A stretch of DNA of 64,000 bases. It comes from Chitinophagales bacterium. GTDB taxonomy: Bacteria; Bacteroidota; Bacteroidia; Chitinophagales; Chitinophagaceae. Below the pieces are notes generated by a model. It did no database searches. It had not been told where the DNA came from and worked only from the letters and a program-made list of their open reading frames with translations. Within the stretch, counting starts at the first letter, position 1. The number at the start of each line of letters is the position of its first letter. Shown here in pieces: positions 11,312-64,000 of this stretch. The stretch is taken from NCBI GenBank assembly GCA_017303415.1, contig JAFLBJ010000002.1:1-64000 (forward strand). Direction: 5' to 3'. Made by a program: the position numbers and the translations under genes.

Positions 11312-11372
11312 AGAGATGACAGATGACAGATGACGGATGTTGGACCGTCATCCGTCATCTGTCATCCGTCCA
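11312..11372. repeat. Heptamer-tandem hairpin element, family F1 (GATGACA/GATGACG/GATGTTG units). Sits in the ubiE/engB divergent intergenic region
   Basis: 'gatgacagatgacagatgacggatgttggaccgtcatccgtcatctgtcatccgtcc': the left arm of 7-mers pairs with right-arm reverse complements, giving a 13 bp or longer stem. Confidence 0.8.
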
Positions 11373-17676: not shown

Positions 17677-17796
17677 ACGTGAGACGTCAATCGTGAGACG
17701 TCAATCGTGAGACGTCAATCGTGAGACGTGAATCGTGAGACGTGAGGCGTGAGTTGCTTCTCACGTCTCACGCCTCACGCCTCACGCGCCTCACGT
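17677..17796. repeat. Tandem-repeat hairpin element, family F2 (CGTGAGA/CGTGAGG units). Has three 14-mer direct repeats CGTGAGACGTCAAT plus a 20 bp hairpin
   Basis: 'cgtgagacgtcaat' occurs three times, followed by 'cgtgagacgtgaggcgtgag ttgcttc ctcacgtctcacgcctcacg'. Confidence 0.8.
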
Positions 17797-17798
17797 TA

Positions 17799-19235
17799 TC
17801 ACTTCGGGCAATCCAGCCTTCTATCCCCTCTCGATCCGGTGATATCGCGGGAGCGAAGGATGATGGCGAAGTAGCCGCCACCCCGGGTGATTTTCTTTTG
17901 GGAGAATATATTGGCCAGGTTATGGACCCCAAACAGGACGGGTCCCAGGCGCACGGCCCCACCGATCCAGAACTGGCTTCGGTCATTGACATAGACAGGG
18001 ATATAAAAACCTTTTCGTTTGGTCTCCCATCTGGGTGTGATCGTCAGTTGGTTAATATCCCTGACCCGGATATTGTCCTTGATCGGGAGTTTGGAGAGGT
18101 CAACAGATAATTCGGCATTCACAAAAAAGGATCCGGTTACAAAGCGGTCAACATTTACGACCATTCTGGCGGGGTGGTTGATCCGGTATTTTCCTTCGTA
18201 GGTGCCAGAGAATTGGTATAAAGAGGAAAGGCTGTCCTTGAAAGATCGGAGGGTCTTGGTGGTGGAGTCCAGACTACGATCCAGGCGCAGGTCTGTTACA
18301 TTGGGACGTATACTGGCTACCGCTGTGCTGTATTTGCCAAAATGATATTGGGTATAGCCCAGATCAAGAAAGGAAAGCCCGATCTTCCAGTCATAGTCAA
18401 AATAGCTTTCTTCGGTTTCGGGTGTTTCCGGGGCGACGGGTTTTAACAGCAGTTCAAAACCGATATCGGCGGAGGCACCACTTTCGGTAAAAGAAAAAAA
18501 GGAACCCAGGTTCTTCCCCGTACTTTGATTGCCATCCCATCGGTCGAGGTTGGAGGAATACCCCCAGCGGGTCTCCGCACTGGTGACCAGGTATTCGACG
18601 GGGTCAGTGGCGGGAATCCGTTGAAAACGGCCATTGTCAATATTGGCAAAGATTCCGGCTACTCCCCGGTTGCCCTTGAGAGTAAGTCCTGCATTTAACC
18701 GGAGGAATTCATTTTCATAGATCGTGCGTCCATACGACAGATAGAGTTCAGCCCAGGAACTGTTAACCAGCGATCCGGTCATTCCCTGGTTGGCTTCATT
18801 CATGCCAAAGAATTCGCCAAATCGCTTGATCGTATCGATATAGTTATAGACAGAAGATTTGACATCGGTATAAGACCTGACATTGATGCCAAAGGCAATG
18901 GCATTCTGTTTATTCAGGGCGATACGCCCATTTAGCAGGTTCAGGTTGGCATTGACGGCACCATAGCGTTTGAAGTTTCCCTCTTTCACCAGGTATTCCG
19001 AATTGGCCGGATTGGAAATAAGGGAGTATTTGAAAACATCTACAATATTGGTGTAGTGTTTATCCTGGAAACCAAACAGGGTCAGGTCCCATTTAACGGG
19101 TACATTGACCATGGCGGCCGGGTTGTTGTGAACATTGAGCGAACCGGTGTATGATGATCCATTGGTCGCGGTGTAATTTTGCGCGGATACCCAAAGGTTC
19201 AGTACCAATATTATTGTGGTGAAGGCAGCTTTCAT
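17799..19235 (-). CDS. Hypothetical secreted/outer-membrane protein
   Basis: Signal peptide MKAAFTTIILVLNLWVSAQ. 478 aa. Beta-rich with many aromatic residues. Confidence 0.45.
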   Translation of the reverse strand: MKAAFTTIILVLNLWVSAQNYTATNGSSYTGSLNVHNNPAAMVNVPVKWDLTLFGFQDKHYTNIVDVFKYSLISNPANSEYLVKEGNFKRYGAVNANLNLLNGRIALNKQNAIAFGINVRSYTDVKSSVYNYIDTIKRFGEFFGMNEANQGMTGSLVNSSWAELYLSYGRTIYENEFLRLNAGLTLKGNRGVAGIFANIDNGRFQRIPATDPVEYLVTSAETRWGYSSNLDRWDGNQSTGKNLGSFFSFTESGASADIGFELLLKPVAPETPETEESYFDYDWKIGLSFLDLGYTQYHFGKYSTAVASIRPNVTDLRLDRSLDSTTKTLRSFKDSLSSLYQFSGTYEGKYRINHPARMVVNVDRFVTGSFFVNAELSVDLSKLPIKDNIRVRDINQLTITPRWETKRKGFYIPVYVNDRSQFWIGGAVRLGPVLFGVHNLANIFSQKKITRGGGYFAIILRSRDITGSRGDRRLDCPK

Positions 19236-34574: not shown

Positions 34575-34870
34575 GAGGCGTGAGAATCGTGAGACGTGAG
34601 ACGTGAGGCGTGAATGGTGAATAGTGAATGGTGAATAGTGAATAGTGAATAGTGAATAGTGAAAGATATAAAAAAGGGTCAATAGTGAAAACTATTGACC
34701 CTTTTGCTTATACATTATTTTCCTCCCCATTCCCCATTCACTATTCACTATTCACCATTCACGCCTCACGTCTCACGCCTCACGTCTCACGCCTCACGTC
34801 TCACGCCTCACGTCTCACGTCTCACACCTCACGCCTCACACCTCACGCCTCACATACAACAAGCTCCCAT
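34575..34870. repeat. Giant heptamer-tandem palindrome, family F2 (CGTGAGR and GTGAATR units), flanking a central terminator hairpin
   Basis: The left arm (34575-34667) and right arm (34728-34870) are reverse-complementary arrays of 7-mers. The centre (34676-34709) carries 'gggtcaatagtgaaaactattgaccc' followed by TTTTG. Confidence 0.85.
34676..34709 (+). terminator. Rho-independent terminator for the histidine kinase, located at the centre of the F2 palindrome
   Basis: A perfect 11 bp stem, 'gggtcaatagt gaaa actattgaccc', followed by TTTTGCTT. Confidence 0.75.
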
Positions 34871-36080
34871 CTCCATAACTCAAAAACCGGAAGTTCTTCT
34901 TCAGCGCATATTCATACACTTTCTTCCAATCGGGGCCAATGGCTGCGGCCACCAATAACAGCAGGGTGGATTGTGGTTGATGAAAATTGGTGACCAATAC
35001 TTCTACGATCCTGAATTTATATCCTGGTACGATCATCAATTGGGTTCGGGTAATCAATTCCTCCTTTTCATTTCTTTTCAGCCAGGTCAATAATGCCTGC
35101 AAGGCAACCGGTACCGTCATGGAATCCTTTTCAAGTGCATAAGCTTCCCATTGGCCCAGGGTCAGTGAGGCAGGGTGGATAAAGGGATTGAGTTTTGTTT
35201 TGACCCCCAACCAATAGAGACTTTCAATGGTACGCAGCGAGGTTGTACCTACGGCCGTGATGATATACTTGTGGTTTTCGAGAATATTTTCAACCGTTTT
35301 GTAGTTCACATGAATAAACTCCGAATGCATGGCGTGATCGGCGATCGTGGCCGATTTTACCGGCATAAATGTCCCTGCACCGACGTGAAGTGTAATGAAA
35401 TCTGTTTTGATCTTTCGTTCCTCTAGCGATTTTAATATGGCCGGGGTAAAATGTAAGCCTGCAGTTGGGGCAGCGACTGAGCCATCGTAATGCGCGTAAA
35501 TGGTCTGGTATTGTTCCGCATCTTCCACCCGTACAGCTCTTTTGATATAGGGGGGAAGAGGGATCGAACCTGCGGCATGTAATATTTCTGCAAAACTGAA
35601 TTGCTCACTATTCCATATCAATTCGATCAGAAAGTGATCACCTTTTTTTTCCCGGTAATGCGCTTCCAGTGTGATATCCGTATCGGTTATGCGTAATTTT
35701 TTTCGGAGTACCTGACCCGGTTTCCATTTGGAAGCTCCGCCAATCAGGCATTTCCAAAATACACTACCTGTTGTTTGCATGGCCAATGAAATATCGCCAT
35801 GGCGTTCATCGGGTTCGAGACAAAATATTTCGATCTGACCACCGGTTTCTTTTTGAAACAACAGACGTGCTTCCACCACTTTGGTATCGTTGAATACCAT
35901 AAGGGCTTCCCGGGGTATATACTCCGCTATATGGGAATAATGATCCTCCCGAATCTCACCGTCCTGGTAAATAAGGAGTCTTGACTGATCGCGCTCGGTA
36001 AGCGGAAATTCGGCAATGTTTTCTGCCGGTAGCGGATAGGTAAAATCCGCGATGGATATTTTGCTGGGGTCTGGTTTCAT
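34836..36080 (-). CDS. queA: S-adenosylmethionine:tRNA ribosyltransferase-isomerase
   Basis: Start trimmed to MKPDPSKISIADFTYPLPAENIA at 36080. Conserved GSVAAPTAGLHFT and TLHVGAGTF motifs. The stop codon and the last four codons (RREV) come from the heptamer repeat. Confidence 0.85.
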   Translation of the reverse strand: MKPDPSKISIADFTYPLPAENIAEFPLTERDQSRLLIYQDGEIREDHYSHIAEYIPREALMVFNDTKVVEARLLFQKETGGQIEIFCLEPDERHGDISLAMQTTGSVFWKCLIGGASKWKPGQVLRKKLRITDTDITLEAHYREKKGDHFLIELIWNSEQFSFAEILHAAGSIPLPPYIKRAVRVEDAEQYQTIYAHYDGSVAAPTAGLHFTPAILKSLEERKIKTDFITLHVGAGTFMPVKSATIADHAMHSEFIHVNYKTVENILENHKYIITAVGTTSLRTIESLYWLGVKTKLNPFIHPASLTLGQWEAYALEKDSMTVPVALQALLTWLKRNEKEELITRTQLMIVPGYKFRIVEVLVTNFHQPQSTLLLLVAAAIGPDWKKVYEYALKKNFRFLSYGDGSLLYVRREV

Positions 36081-36114
36081 ACAACTAACTGTTGTAGTGG
36101 GTACGAAGGTAGGA

Positions 36115-36300
36115 ATTTTGGATGATGGATGAGAGATGACAGATGACGGATGACAGATGACGGAAGATGGATGTTGGATGTTGGATGTTGGATGGGGAGG
36201 CTTGCTGTCCAACATCTGTCATCCGTCATCTGTCATCTGTCATCTGTCATCCAACATCCGTCATCCAACATCCAACATCCAACATCCTCCTCCCGCTCCA
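36115..36300. repeat. Heptamer-tandem hairpin element, family F1 (GATGACA/GATGACG/GATGTTG), in the queA/mraZ divergent region
   Basis: Left arm: about 11 units of GATGNNN. Loop: 'ggggaggcttgctgt'. Right arm: about 11 units of the reverse complements (CAACATC/CGTCATC/TGTCATC). Confidence 0.85.
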
Positions 36301-60626: not shown

Positions 60627-62780
60627 CTAAGAAACCCCGGAGCCGGGTTCCACTTTATTCTCTGTATGCAGAAAATGCAATTTGCCTGTTTTATCCTCTG
60701 CCATCAGGATCATTCCCTGGCTTTCGATGCCGCGCATTTTTCGCGGAGCGAGGTTGGCAACTACGGTCACTTGTTTACCAACGATCTCTTCTGGTGTAAA
60801 ATGCATCGCAATTCCTGAAACGATGGTGCGGGTCTCGGTACCCATATCCACCTGAAGTTTTAACAATTTATCTGCTTTTTCAACCTTTTCGGCAGCGATG
60901 ATGGTTCCGATACGAAGGTCCAGTTTGGCAAAATCATCATACTGGATCTCGGATTTGGCAACGGGTGCTGTTGTTTCTTTTTTCTCATCCACTTTTTTGA
61001 CTTGAATGGTTTGTGCAGGGGGAGGGGTGGAGTGGGCTTTTAACTTTTCCACTTGGGCCTTGATCTCTTCATCTTCGACCTTCCGGAATAAAAGTTCTGG
61101 TGCCCGCAGGGTGTACCCCACGCTAAGCAATTTAACGGACCCGGCGTTTTTCCAATCCAGCATCTTGTCCACCACTTTCATCATATGACACATGCGGGAG
61201 GCTGTGTTGGGCAGGAAGGGATTGATAAGTATGGCGAGATTGGCCGTTAACTGAAGACAGTAATGCAGACAGTTATCGATCAATAATTGCTGATCGGGAT
61301 TTTCACTGATCGTCTTGGCCAGGATCCAGGGTTCTTTCTTCTGCATGTATTGATTGCCCTTTCGACTCAGATCGATTACTTCAAATAGCGCTTCCCGGAA
61401 TTTATATTGTTCCAACAATCCTTCTACCCGTTCTTTGGTAGCCTTGATGTCATTTTCCAAATCTTTGTCCAGGTCATCTGCCTTTTCTGCATGATAGCGG
61501 GGTACTTTACCGCCACATAGTTTGTGCATCAATACCCAGGTACGGTTGACAAAATTGCCATAAATGCTCACCAGTTCACTGTTCACGGCATCCTGAAAAC
61601 CTTTCCAGGTAAACTCGCTGTCCTTGGTCTCCGGCGCGATCTGTGTAAGATAATATCGGAGCATATCCACACACTGGCCACCCCCGTTTTCCTTCTTTAC
61701 AAAATCCTGGATATAGTCACGCATATCGAGTTTCCAGTTGCGACTGGTGCTCATTTTATCGCCTTCCAGGTTAAGGAATTCATTGGCCGGCACATTATCC
61801 GGTAAAATATTTCCATGCAACTGAAGCATGATGGGGAATATGATGCAATGGAAAACGATATTGTCTTTTCCAATAAAGTGCACCAGTTTGGTGTCCTTAT
61901 CGTACCAATAAGGTTTCCAATCCTTCTCATTGTCGATGGCCCATTGTTTTGTCGCACTGATATACCCGATCGGGGCATCAAACCATACATACAGTACTTT
62001 CCCATCTACGGCCTCTGTTGTAGCCTCAGTTCCTGCCGAAACAGGAACGCGAATACCCCAATCAAGGTCGCGGGTTACCGCACGTGATTGCAGCCCCCCA
62101 TCGATCCAGCTTTTACATTGACCAGTCACGGTTCCACGCCAATCATCTTTATGGTCTTCAATTATCCATTGCCGTAAAAATGCCTCATGTTTTCCCAGCG
62201 GGAGATACCAATGGGTGGTTTTTTTCTTGATCGGGGGTTGGCCGCTCAGCGTGCTAACCGGATTGATCAGTTCATCGGGGCTCAGGGTGCTGCCACAATT
62301 TTCACATTGATCACCATAGGCCCGGTCGCTTCCGCAAACGGGACAGGTACCCTTAATATAGCGGTCAGCTAAAAAGGTCTTGGCCGATTCATCAAAGTAT
62401 TGTTCGGTCTCTTTGGTTTCCAGTTCTCCTCTTTCGTTCAGGTATTGGAAAAATTCCTGAGCGGTCTCATGATGGAGCGGGTCACTGGTCCGATGGTAGA
62501 TGTCAAAGGAAATGTTCAGATCGGCAAAATCTTCCTTCATCGCCTCATGGTACTTGTCAATAATGGCGCGGGGAGTAGTGCCTTCCTTCATGGCCTGGAT
62601 GGGGATGGCTGTGCCGTGTTCATCACTGCCACAGACAAAAACCACGTCCCTTTTTTGAGCCCTTAGATAGCGGACATAGATATCGGCCGGAATATAAGCC
62701 CCCGCCAGATGACCGATGTGTTTCAATCCATTGGCATAGGGCAGGGCAGAGGTAATGAGGTATCTTTTCGGAGTGTTCAT
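60627..62780 (-). CDS. metG: Methionine--tRNA ligase with a C-terminal tRNA-binding domain
   Basis: HIGH-type motif in ALPYANGLKHIGHLAG. KMSKS as KMSTS. Zn-knuckle cysteines (CPVCGS and CENCG). C-terminal EMAP-like domain. Start trimmed to MNTPKRY at 62780; the ORF-caller start lies in the repeat. Confidence 0.9.
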   Translation of the reverse strand: MNTPKRYLITSALPYANGLKHIGHLAGAYIPADIYVRYLRAQKRDVVFVCGSDEHGTAIPIQAMKEGTTPRAIIDKYHEAMKEDFADLNISFDIYHRTSDPLHHETAQEFFQYLNERGELETKETEQYFDESAKTFLADRYIKGTCPVCGSDRAYGDQCENCGSTLSPDELINPVSTLSGQPPIKKKTTHWYLPLGKHEAFLRQWIIEDHKDDWRGTVTGQCKSWIDGGLQSRAVTRDLDWGIRVPVSAGTEATTEAVDGKVLYVWFDAPIGYISATKQWAIDNEKDWKPYWYDKDTKLVHFIGKDNIVFHCIIFPIMLQLHGNILPDNVPANEFLNLEGDKMSTSRNWKLDMRDYIQDFVKKENGGGQCVDMLRYYLTQIAPETKDSEFTWKGFQDAVNSELVSIYGNFVNRTWVLMHKLCGGKVPRYHAEKADDLDKDLENDIKATKERVEGLLEQYKFREALFEVIDLSRKGNQYMQKKEPWILAKTISENPDQQLLIDNCLHYCLQLTANLAILINPFLPNTASRMCHMMKVVDKMLDWKNAGSVKLLSVGYTLRAPELLFRKVEDEEIKAQVEKLKAHSTPPPAQTIQVKKVDEKKETTAPVAKSEIQYDDFAKLDLRIGTIIAAEKVEKADKLLKLQVDMGTETRTIVSGIAMHFTPEEIVGKQVTVVANLAPRKMRGIESQGMILMAEDKTGKLHFLHTENKVEPGSGVS

Positions 62781-62817
62781 TTGCGTGGCAAAAATACGGG
62801 ATTCCCGGGAGGTGGAT

Positions 62818-63120
62818 GTTGGATGTTGGATGACGGAGGACAGATGACGGATGACGGATGTTGGATGATGGATGTTGGATGGCGGAGGCTTGCTGTGCGA
62901 GACCTCTGGTCTCGCACGCATCTCCCGTCGCCTCTGGCGACAGAAATTGATTATTTTTCTAGATTTGCAATAATTTCTTATTCGAGTCGCCAGAGGCGAC
63001 AAGACAATCGTGCGAGACCAGAGGTCTCGCACAGCAAGCCTCCGCCATCCAACATCCAACATCCGTCATCCGTCATCTTTCCTCCGTCCTCCGTCATCCA
63101 AAATCCCACATCCAACCTCC
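62818..63120. repeat. Composite palindromic element with F1 heptamer arms (GGATGTT/GGATGAC). The arms enclose nested perfect palindromes and an AT-rich core
   Basis: The arms share 'gaggcttgctgt' with the element at 36115-36300. Inner units: 'tgcgagacctctggtctcgca' and 'gtcgcctctggcgac'. A 44 bp AT-rich core lies at 62943-62986. Their reverse complements follow. Confidence 0.85.
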
Positions 63121-63125
63121 CCACT

Positions 63126-64000
63126 TCACTTCCTCCGCTGCGCAAACATCCACTTCAAATATTCCGGCTCGGCAAAAGCATTATCCCAGCTATTGTGGTT
63201 TACACCGGGGTATTCGGAGTATTTGACGGTGGCCTTAAGCGCTTTGAGTCGCTCTACCATATCGCGGGAGAGTTTGACATCCACTACGGCATCTGCCGCG
63301 CCATGAAAGACCCAGAATGGGATCTTAGCCTGTTTTTTTGAATAACTATTGGGATCGCCACCACCACAAATCGGTAAGGCAGCGGCATAGAGATCGGGGT
63401 TGCGGTAAACGGATTCAAATGTACCCATGCCGCCCATGGAAAGACCAGTGATGTAGACGCGTTTTTCATCAACCGATCCTTCTTTGATCAGCGAGCGCAC
63501 CAGCGCATTGGCTGCAGCCTGGGGCCATACCGGAGCAGAGCCATAGGCAAAATCTAACTTAATGGGTTGTTTGCTGCGATCTACATTTACGGTGCCCCAA
63601 AAGGACTCCTCAGGGCATTGGGGGAATACAACGATCGCTGGGAAGTTCTTTCTGTTTTCTTCATTCAGAAAAAGCCGGCTGCCGTGTATCAATTGTTTCT
63701 CATTGTCTTTTCCCCGCTCACCTGCTCCATGCAGGAAAAGGATCATGGGGTATTTCTTCTTTGGATCATAATTTTCCGGATATAGAATGCGATAAGGAAG
63801 CACCTGCCCTTCGGCAAACTTGAATTCTTTTCGTTCATAGGCCACCAGAGCGGGATCAAACTCTTTTTTCTTCATATAACCCATCTGGTCCATCCATTCG
63901 CCTAAGCGCTCGATCCAATGGTCAGAAGGCATGTTTTGTTTCCGCATACCAAATCCATGTCCGCCTTTGGCATACATATGGATCTCGGCGGTGTTTCCGG
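63126..64000 (-). CDS. Alpha/beta-hydrolase (esterase/peptidase S9-like). Partial: the N-terminus runs off the window
   Basis: GLSMGG nucleophile elbow. HGAAD C-terminal His region. The ORF continues to the window edge without a stop. Confidence 0.65.
   Translation of the reverse strand, partial: GNTAEIHMYAKGGHGFGMRKQNMPSDHWIERLGEWMDQMGYMKKKEFDPALVAYERKEFKFAEGQVLPYRILYPENYDPKKKYPMILFLHGAGERGKDNEKQLIHGSRLFLNEENRKNFPAIVVFPQCPEESFWGTVNVDRSKQPIKLDFAYGSAPVWPQAAANALVRSLIKEGSVDEKRVYITGLSMGGMGTFESVYRNPDLYAAALPICGGGDPNSYSKKQAKIPFWVFHGAADAVVDVKLSRDMVERLKALKATVKYSEYPGVNHNSWDNAFAEPEYLKWMFAQRRK

Follow-up and report, generated by a model that had tools for sequence, protein, structure and literature searches.

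The closest described counterparts of the element reported here are the REP and REPIN systems, represented by TnpA-REP (RayT/YafM) and the BIMEs of E. coli and by the REPINs and RAYTs of P. fluorescens (Bertels & Rainey 2011, PMC3116915). Nearly all work on such REPIN-RAYT systems concerns Gammaproteobacteria. A second point of reference is TnpA-Y1 subclass 2.6, which corresponds to RAYT group 5 (PMC6006769; PMC5581495). Its members come mostly from Bacteroidetes, have no GT[AG]G foot and are accompanied by 'atypical secondary structures' that recur at other places in the genome (PMC6006769), and these structures beside the gene are all that the literature we consulted on Bacteroidetes-type RAYTs describes. 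In the 64-kb stretch of DNA analyzed here (the window), a long composite hairpin lies upstream of metG, and we conclude, with a probability of about 85%, that its inner 144 nt (62892-63035) are a REPIN, that is, an inverted pair of REPs around an AT-rich spacer, which belongs to a lineage-specific family of a small Chitinophagaceae clade and has a RAYT partner in sister genomes.

Architecture of the composite hairpin

The composite lies in the spacer between two genes on the minus strand, delimited by an esterase-family gene, whose stop codon is at 63126, and by metG, whose ATG is at 62780. The latter gene (60627-62780, minus strand) encodes a methionine-tRNA ligase of 717 aa, while the former, of the dienelactone-hydrolase/esterase family, is represented by its 3′ part (63126-64000, minus strand) and runs off the window, its product being 538 aa long in relatives. 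Between them lies an inverted repeat (62813-62941 / 62986-63114) with 129-nt arms that are 89% complementary and 44 nt apart. The first-pass annotation had placed the element at 62818-63120; the repeat is indeed there and begins at 62813 instead. Each arm carries two perfect nested palindromes, the outer being GTGCGAGACC-TCT-GGTCTCGCAC at 62895-62917, with its AGA counterpart at 63010-63032, and the inner GTCGCC-TCT-GGCGAC at 62927-62941, with its AGA counterpart at 62986-63000. Both patterns occur exactly twice in the 64 kb, compared to an expectation of 0.00 from 100 dinucleotide shuffles. The core that they flank (62942-62985) is 44 nt long and 79.5% AT. The segment GAGGCTTGCTGT, found at 36197, at 62885 and, on the minus strand, at 63031 (0.19 expected in the window), is shared with a second hairpin at 36.1 kb. 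The palindromes, the AT-rich core, the arms and the shared segment that had been described were all recovered. Runs of the heptamer GGATGWY are confined within the window to 11.3 kb, 36.1 kb and 62.8-63.1 kb, with 35 matches against 0.03 expected. When the 345-nt spacer between the esterase gene and metG was folded as RNA, we obtained -263 kcal/mol (z = -27.8), and as DNA -156 kcal/mol (z = -26.7). The metG frame stays open through the hairpin to 811 aa, and such composites keep long spurious ORFs open.

On the metG side, the composite is bounded by a conserved 24-nt leader of metG, GAATCCCGTATTTTTGCCACGCAA (62781-62804, minus strand), which is identical or near-identical at five other loci (L189, L190, L107, L192 and L191). 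Within it, 8 nt before the ATG, lies the box TATTTTTG (62789-62796, minus strand), which we take to be a Bacteroidetes -7 promoter element on the basis of the TAnnTTTG consensus. The 5′ arm (62813-62880, plus strand) is a G-rich tandem array with a period of 7, made of the heptamers GGATGTT, GGATGAC, GGAGGAC and AGATGAC. It is followed by an extended REP foot, GGCGGAGG-CTT-GCTGT (62881-62896, plus strand), whose GCTGT is the conserved 5′ foot of the family; GGCGGAGG-NNN is kept in most heptamer-flanked copies, and the extended foot of the window is found in identical form at another locus, L005. The first REP module, which we designate type C (62892-62941, plus strand), consists of the foot GCTGT, an outer hairpin GCGAGACC-TCT-GGTCTCGC (62897-62915), the dinucleotide AC, a linker GCATCTCCC (62918-62926) and the inner GTCGCC-TCT-GGCGAC hairpin (62927-62941), all on the plus strand. 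The spacer between the modules is the AT-rich core itself; its metG-distal end (TCGAATAAGAA, minus strand) equals the family consensus and the remainder is variant. The second module, of type A, is on the minus strand (62986-63035) and reads GCTGT, GCGAGACC-TCT-GGTCTCGC, AC, GATTGTCTT and GTCGCC-TCT-GGCGAC. The two inverted modules and their spacer make up a complete REPIN (62892-63035), and its canonical family orientation is the minus strand, as indicated by nhmmer (127 bits, compared to 110 on the plus strand) and by alignment. Beyond it, the 3′ arm (63036-63120, plus strand) opens with the complement of the extended foot, AAGCCTCCGCC, and continues in C-rich heptamers.

A REPIN family and its partner transposase

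A pattern scan with GCGAGACCWSWGGTCTCGC across one genome per species (185,579 species) returned 106 stretches, dozens of them in two Chitinophagaceae MAGs, JTS-AC105 (JBGSHM01) and bins.144 (JANRLV01), and in one mis-binned contig. Matches outside the Chitinophagaceae were isolated palindromes in unrelated contexts. In both MAGs, to which the window is about 92% identical at the nucleotide level, the matches were usually paired at a distance of 106-115 nt and very often lay at contig ends. An nhmmer profile of the family detected 77 copies in the fetched DNA, of which 44 are nearly full-length, and the 64-kb window contains a single one, at 62892-63035; about 20 exact-pattern pairs have the spacing of 106-115 nt, and each of the two related MAGs contains at least 40 modules. 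The search for paralogous copies of the inner segment, which the first-pass annotation had proposed, therefore found many. A large number of contigs in both MAGs end inside a REPIN, and the composites break short-read assemblies and mark synteny breakpoints.

The family consensus is about 140 nt long. Its first half reads GCTGT-GCGAGACC TCT GGTCTCGC-AC-(9-nt linker)-GYCGCC TCT GGCGRC-TCGAATAACAACCTTTTCTTTTT, and its second half AATAAACTATAACC-GCCGCC AGA GGCGGC-(9 nt)-GT-GCGAGACC AGA GGTCTCGC-ACAGC. Each module follows one plan: a GCTGT foot, a 10-bp hairpin with a TCT loop, AC, a 9-nt linker and a 6-bp hairpin with a TCT loop. Among 84 modules defined by regular expression, the 5′ foot GCTGT is present in 80, the outer TCT loop in 75 and the inner TCT loop in 81, and the inner stem is GTCGCC/GGCGAC in 52 and GCCGCC/GGCGGC in 32, and mixed stems do not occur. 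About four types of linker can be distinguished, A (GATTGTCTT, the commonest, with 18 copies), B (TTCCAGAAA), C (nnnTCTCCC) and D (CTATAGAAT), which combine freely in doublets, the copy in the window being A + C. All full copies examined are intergenic and occur in both element orientations; by crude ORF calling, the flanking genes are co-directional in 16 cases, convergent in 8 and divergent in 2. The classical GT[AG]G 5′ foot is missing from the family. Since the REPs of subclass 2.6 likewise do without it (PMC6006769), this excludes the classical GTAG superfamily and leaves an association with a RAYT intact.

Such an association is seen in both MAGs, where two inverted modules of type B bracket a gene of about 550 bp (L075, 958-1642, in bins.144; L028, 6656-7342, in JTS-AC105). 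Its 184-aa product matches the NCBIfam model NF047646, REP_Tyr_transpos (5.6e-30, 104 bits, cutoff 80), and Pfam Y1_Tnp (23.9 bits, cutoff 23), has the E. coli TnpA-REP structure 4er8 as its best PDB match, and fails the IS200 model NF033573 (19.4 bits, cutoff 55). It carries the motifs NHIH at positions 63-66 and YIHENP with Y146, about 82 aa apart, with SS after the tyrosine. These motifs, on which the class assignment is based, place the protein closest to TnpA-Y1 subclass 2.6 (Bertels group 5), from whose motif table it departs by WT for WQ and by E for Q/N. tblastn gave one match per MAG among the fetched loci, and the gene adjoins rplL in four assemblies. The enzyme is known from relatives about 92% identical to the window and was not found in the 64 kb of the window itself. 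It is this multicopy unit, together with inverted ends of the same family around a RAYT gene in the sister MAGs, that leads us to identify the inner element as a REPIN.

The protein family is large in the Chitinophagaceae, with 1,664 proteins at E <= 1e-20, several of which are called RayT by their sources. Beside more distant homologues lie cognate modules that also have two hairpins but differ in sequence: ATCGCC-N3-GGCGAT and TGCGAAACT-N3-AGTTTCGCA beside the gene of Ferruginibacter, and GCGAGGCT-TGC-AGCCTCGC beside that of Pseudoflavitalea. Next to the REPs that flank the RAYT gene in our clade, the 5′ arrays are built of 13-nt units consisting of the REP foot and half of the stem. If it acts like E. 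coli TnpA-REP and IS200/IS605, the enzyme would bind REP hairpins folded in single-stranded DNA, cleave close to the foot and then move or copy the REP doublet, and by the same comparison RAYT would be what moves the REPIN.

Turnover of the sites and origin of the arms

The metG site differs between close relatives. In the nearest, JTS-AC105 (metG 90% identical at the nucleotide and 97% at the amino acid level), the spacer between the esterase gene and metG is 36 nt, compared to 345 nt in the window, and reads aagTGA-ggcgtgagacgt-GAATCCCGTATTTTTGCCACGCAA-ATG (also given as TGA-ggcgtgagacgt-GAATCCCG). The empty site in a relative that the first-pass annotation had recommended looking for thus exists. 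In bins.144 the composite is present at metG, split over the ends of two contigs (L025 and L034), and in relatives at 88-89% amino acid identity the metG spacers are 64-71 nt long, with neither hairpin nor REPIN. This pattern of presence and absence shows that the composite is an indel polymorphism of about 320 nt located 8 nt upstream of the TATTTTTG box. It is also absent from 80 more distant metagenome metG loci (84-90% amino acid identity, too distant for the spacer to be aligned), which show only that the composite is lineage-specific; in syntenic distant relatives, the spacer holds an ordinary intrinsic terminator. A search for homologues of the esterase gave no near-identical full-length protein, and the closest contig ends 17 nt past the stop codon. 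The empty site of JTS-AC105 has no arms either, yet two heptamer-like units, GGCGTGA and GACGTGA, remain there, and it could therefore be a deletion product. With the arms missing from the empty metG allele too, we found no clean comparison of a site before and after insertion of the REPIN by itself.

The 36.1 kb element (36113-36287) is a heptamer hairpin without a REPIN, its loop having kept only the REP foot GGAGGCTTGCTGT (36195-36208). The first-pass annotation had read the metG composite as the same structure with an insertion gained in its loop, and this may be backwards. In JTS-AC105 (L029), a REPIN abuts the orthologous right flank of the 36.1 kb element; because the loop in the window has kept the foot as well, we infer that loss of a REPIN from 36.1 kb is more probable than that this site shows how the 62.8 kb element looked ancestrally. 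The left flank is not syntenic with L029, and we dropped 36.1 kb as a candidate for a clean empty site. Asymmetric footprints of REPIN excision have been reported in P. fluorescens (PMC3116915), and the foot remnant at 36.1 kb would fit such a pattern.

Copies at other loci also provide indirect signs of movement or exchange. One half of the REPIN in the window, including its unusual spacer, recurs at L005 with an identical sequence over 91 nt and 20 nt of foot extension; as the locus and the arms there are different, this points to recent copying. At 15 or more REP sites of JTS-AC105, a REP or REPIN is found at the orthologous site of bins.144, so copies persist at orthologous sites between species that are about 90-92% identical at the nucleotide level. 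Some of these sites are not occupied in the same way: in two pairs (L098/L067 and L009/L089), a full REPIN stands opposite a solo outer hairpin, and in a third (L095/L032), modules D+B stand opposite C+A. For the different module types at orthologous sites, turnover or gene conversion fits as well as transposition.

These findings bear on other possible identities of the element. It had been likened in the first-pass annotation to a MITE inserted into a hairpin or to an att/dif-type site. The broader part of the former proposal, a mobile element within a hairpin, agrees with our data, in which the element is non-autonomous and multicopy and has an empty allele in a relative. A classical MITE, in which terminal inverted repeats derive from a DDE transposon and insertion duplicates the target site, would likewise be short, non-coding and multicopy, with inverted ends and presence/absence variation. 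However, there is no target-site duplication or other direct repeat at the borders of the REPIN or the composite, where GCTGT and ACAGC are inverted rather than direct, and what these ends enclose in their sole coding version is a Y1/HUH RAYT and not a DDE transposase; in addition, the ends fold on themselves into hairpins whose loop and foot are oriented, as those of REPs do, and the MITE reading is accordingly very improbable. A site for site-specific recombination (att, dif or Xer-type), with recombinase boxes around a crossover core, has the symmetry of the boxes about an AT-rich center in its favor and nothing else. dif is single-copy, whereas at least 40 modules occur in each related genome; the spacer is variable and 44 nt long rather than a crossover region of 6-8 bp between recombinase arms of roughly 11 bp; the filled and empty metG alleles differ by the composite of about 320 nt alone, with no cargo and no adjacent recombinase; and a search of 2.9 million viral contigs for the footed palindrome gave no match. 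We consider that this reading can hardly be correct.

The extreme stability of the RNA fold given above could instead reflect a selected cis-acting RNA or DNA structure, such as a terminator or insulator, a 3′ stabilizer, an RNase III site or a control element in the metG leader. The position between co-directional genes, the location of REPINs mostly downstream of genes and the ordinary terminator in the same spacer of distant syntenic relatives would be in keeping with this, as would the fact that E. coli REPs stabilize upstream mRNA. Nevertheless, the structure is absent from the closest relative, in which 36 nt separate the esterase stop from the metG ATG, it recurs in dozens of unrelated contexts and in both orientations, and it has no U-tract; any such effect would moreover be a by-product and not the origin of the element. 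We therefore regard a selected cis-acting structure as quite unlikely, while a terminator or stabilizer effect of the hairpin as a by-product is plausible. An Rfam scan with permissive filters gave only sub-threshold hits to plant and animal microRNA precursors, as expected for any long hairpin, and a scan of the spacer for sigma-70 promoters and intrinsic terminators remained at chance level, with a tool that does not cover Bacteroidetes promoters. Two narrower candidates were set aside: a putative promoter, the plus-strand box TAGATTTG in the spacer, which is not conserved in other copies, and a dedicated metG regulatory RNA, which is missing from the closest relative, has no Rfam family and scanned at chance level.

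The heptamer arms are a layer separate from the REPIN and are lineage-specific. Clear periods of 7 or 14 are present on both flanks of 16 of 31 REPINs, and in 23 of these 31 the two flanks form an inverted-repeat alignment of 40 nt or more; heptamer arms are missing from some REPINs. The polarity is constant, the 5′ arm being G-rich and the 3′ arm C-rich in 28 of 31 REPIN flanks and in 23 of 23 array pairs, with none in the opposite sense. Arms also occur around other apices: besides 36.1 kb, the window contains heptamer hairpins without a REPIN at 11314-11367 (loop GGACC), at about 17700-17800 (loop TTGCTT) and at 34578-34850, where a bidirectional intrinsic terminator occupies the apex (34672-34720). 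In bins.144 the arms at metG are about 14-21 nt (2-3 heptamers) shorter near the apex on both sides, and the two arms match almost perfectly; the two arms thus change together between genomes. L107 and L190 have metG genes 99.8% and 98.7% identical to that of the window, yet their arms belong to another heptamer family, ATTCACC/CTCACGC, and abut the same GAATCCCG boundary. The arms therefore turn over fast, differing even between strains that are 99.8% identical in metG. We detected no heptamer hairpins in 430 kb of other Chitinophagaceae, and our literature searches for heptamer hairpins or RAYTs in this family turned up no description of the composite.

We consider it most likely that the REPIN inserted into the tip of a heptamer hairpin or was exchanged there repeatedly; a by-product would be a very stable hairpin, as RNA or as DNA, between the esterase gene and metG. 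The data are compatible both with REPINs that target existing hairpin apices and with arrays that grow around apex hairpins. It is rather unlikely that the arms are no pre-existing target and are made or maintained by the REP/RAYT system itself, for example by nicking and stuttering 5′ of the foot or by hairpin-templated conversion, or that arms and REPIN form one unit of foldback type, of which the REPIN-less hairpins would be remnants. This would agree with the absolute polarity, the G-rich array always lying on the 5′ (foot) side of the module, with the 13-nt units beside the RAYT-flanking REPs, with the partial duplications of CTCGCACAGC that abut at least 8 copies, with the concerted change of both arms between genomes, with their absence from the 430 kb of other Chitinophagaceae and with the REP foot still carried by the 36.1 kb hairpin. 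Against it are apices unrelated to REPs (the terminator at 34672-34720 and the small loops at 11.3 and 17.7 kb), REPINs that have no arms and heptamers that are not derived from REP sequence; moreover, we know of no HUH enzyme that makes tandem arrays. Somewhat more speculatively, the arms might stem from an undescribed process that grows and homogenizes both stems symmetrically around an apex element, be it a REPIN, a solo REP or a terminator, an explanation that we hold to be unlikely. In such a process the arms may grow through RAYT nicking 5′ of the REP foot or through hairpin-templated repair, and the outcome would be strictly polar arms, G-rich on the 5′ side, with turnover even among strains 99.8% identical in the adjacent gene. 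If true, bacteria would have a repeat system of the 'foldback' kind that is linked to a HUH transposase turned domestic. The polar, hypervariable and co-evolving arms may hint at a way of growing palindromes that has not been described before.

Comparison with known systems

The inner element shares the basic organization of the REPs of E. coli and P. fluorescens. In all of these, copies of short extragenic palindromes number tens to hundreds, a replicative unit comprises two inverted REPs with a spacer, and REP subtypes are mixed in doublets, the shuffling of linkers between the two ends resembling the Y and Z REPs in E. coli BIMEs. As in those species, a Y1/HUH gene is bracketed by its own REPs, sites persist between related species, and solo REPs appear as apparent remnants; the gene, single-copy and syntenic in those systems, adjoins rplL in four assemblies here and is present once per MAG among the fetched loci. 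Several features set the present family apart: the foot is GCTGT instead of GT[AG]G, a 9-nt linker connects the two perfect TCT-looped hairpins (10 bp and 6 bp) of each REP, the host belongs to the Bacteroidota, and most copies are capped 5′ by G-rich heptamer arrays that result in a much longer hairpin.

With IS200/IS605 and their PATE/MITE derivatives, the system has in common Y1/HUH chemistry, subterminal hairpins of the kind recognized in single-stranded DNA, the lack of a target-site duplication and short non-autonomous forms. In contrast to them, the protein scores above the cutoff of the RAYT model but below that of the IS200 model, the ends are inverted and not direct, and the gene adjoins rplL in four assemblies and is present once per MAG among the fetched loci rather than in many copies. 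The arms recall Drosophila foldback (FB) transposons, the STRR heptamer repeats of cyanobacteria and the Nezha MITE, in which long inverted arms of variable short tandem repeats surround a central segment, or which show heptamer periodicity. To our knowledge, none of these has a link to a RAYT or a REP, and their hosts are a eukaryote and cyanobacteria, so the resemblance is one of form only; furthermore, the arms described here, unlike theirs, are strictly polar, with the G-rich array on the 5′ side, and hypervariable between near-identical strains.

The transposase itself is most similar to those of the subclass 2.6 REPtrons (PMC6006769) or group 5 (PMC5581495), with which it shares a Bacteroidetes host, a length of about 180 aa, REPs without a GT[AG]G foot, an NH[LIV]H and a YIHxNP-type motif, an HuH-to-Y distance of about 82 aa, a serine motif that follows the tyrosine, and flanking atypical structures with copies elsewhere in the genome. 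The accounts of that subclass describe weak or atypical flanks that call for manual inspection, whereas here we see a sharp module, REPIN doublets and a measurable population of copies. We conclude that the family is a new and well-defined REPIN-RAYT system of the Bacteroidota with variant features, namely a two-hairpin REP, a GCTGT foot and polar, hypervariable arms. Its defined module, doublets, REPtron and copy population provide a concrete substrate for biochemistry on a subclass-2.6-like RAYT.

Heptamer hairpins and the empty metG allele

Five heptamer hairpins, long inverted repeats with stems of tandem 7-nt units, lie in the 64 kb window, at 11.3, 17.7, 34.6, 36.1 and 62.8 kb, and in all five the G-rich arm is on the 5′ side; a search of 430 kb of other Chitinophagaceae found none. 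The hairpin at 34578-34850 is long, with a 5′ arm of GGCGTGA/GACGTGA/GGTGAAT and a 3′ arm of their complements, while the shorter ones at 17700-17800 and 11314-11367 have small loops (TTGCTT and GGACC, respectively). Since a textbook bidirectional intrinsic terminator (aaaaaagggtcaatagtgaaaactattgacccttttg) occupies the apex of the 34578-34850 hairpin, heptamer arms also enclose ordinary terminators. The heptamers of this hairpin represent a separate repeat family.

In the JTS-AC105 MAG, the "empty" esterase-metG spacer is made up of a pair of heptamer-like units, GGCGTGA GACGTGA (contig L189, 2465-2476), and a contig of a related MAG terminates in TGAggcgtgaggcgtgaatc (L199 3664-3680). The empty allele may thus be either the remnant of a deletion or the seed of an arm.

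The metG reading frame and leader

In the window, the metG frame is open across the entire composite (the REPIN between its heptamer arms), resulting in an 811-aa ORF (60627-63062, minus strand) whose 94-aa N-terminal extension is spurious. Other frames through the composite hairpin likewise carry long ORFs, and such open frames are a hazard for annotation. The 24 nt preceding the metG ATG (GAATCCCGTATTTTTGCCACGCAA; window 62781-62804, L189 2477-2500) are near-invariant among relatives with a coding sequence that is only 80-90% identical. A metG mRNA transcribed from the TATTTTTG box would be almost leaderless; a TTG (-33) element was absent in both the filled and the empty alleles.

Synteny and assembly breaks at the repeats

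Synteny with JTS-AC105 ends precisely at the 36.1 kb repeat (window 36079-36300, compared with 2100-2480 of the JTS-AC105 contig L029): the right flank is collinear at 93-98% identity and the left flank is unrelated. The arms of the L029 REPIN are non-complementary, GGATGWY on the left and ATTCACC on the right, which, together with the one-sided synteny, suggests that two composites rearranged with each other at this site.

In both short-read MAGs, contigs begin or end within the REPIN or its arms at many loci (for example L006, L014, L016, L022, L025, L027, L033, L034, L038, L045, L050 and L051), and this repeat family is a major source of assembly breaks in JTS-AC105 and bins.144. An exact match to the window's REPIN, flanked by arms GGTGAAT/GTGAGRC, is found on a 598-nt, low-coverage contig (L005, JAEURH010000320.1) binned in an Anaerolineales MAG; this contig, carrying a Chitinophagaceae REPIN, was probably mis-binned.

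Duplicated REP ends and RAYT-flanking modules

The REP terminus (..TCTCGCACAGC..) is duplicated, in tandem or partially, immediately outside the REP at L028 7320-7390 and L075 1630-1700, and also in L010, L020, L042, L078, L084 and L105. These duplications form 13-nt arrays adjoining the RAYT gene and look like stuttering at the element end. The family also clusters, as a REPIN is followed by a further partial REPIN at L078 2059-2315. A third MAG, Chitinophagaceae EBPR_s472bin.5, contains a 190-bp tandem duplication (L083 3844-4061), each duplicate ending with a solo hairpin, GCTGT-GCGAGACC-TCT-GGTCTCGC-ACAG.

A RAYT homologue in the Ferruginibacter-like contig L194 is flanked by two-hairpin modules (1265-1313 and 2068-2116) in direct orientation, in contrast to the inverted modules around the RAYT genes of L075 and L028.
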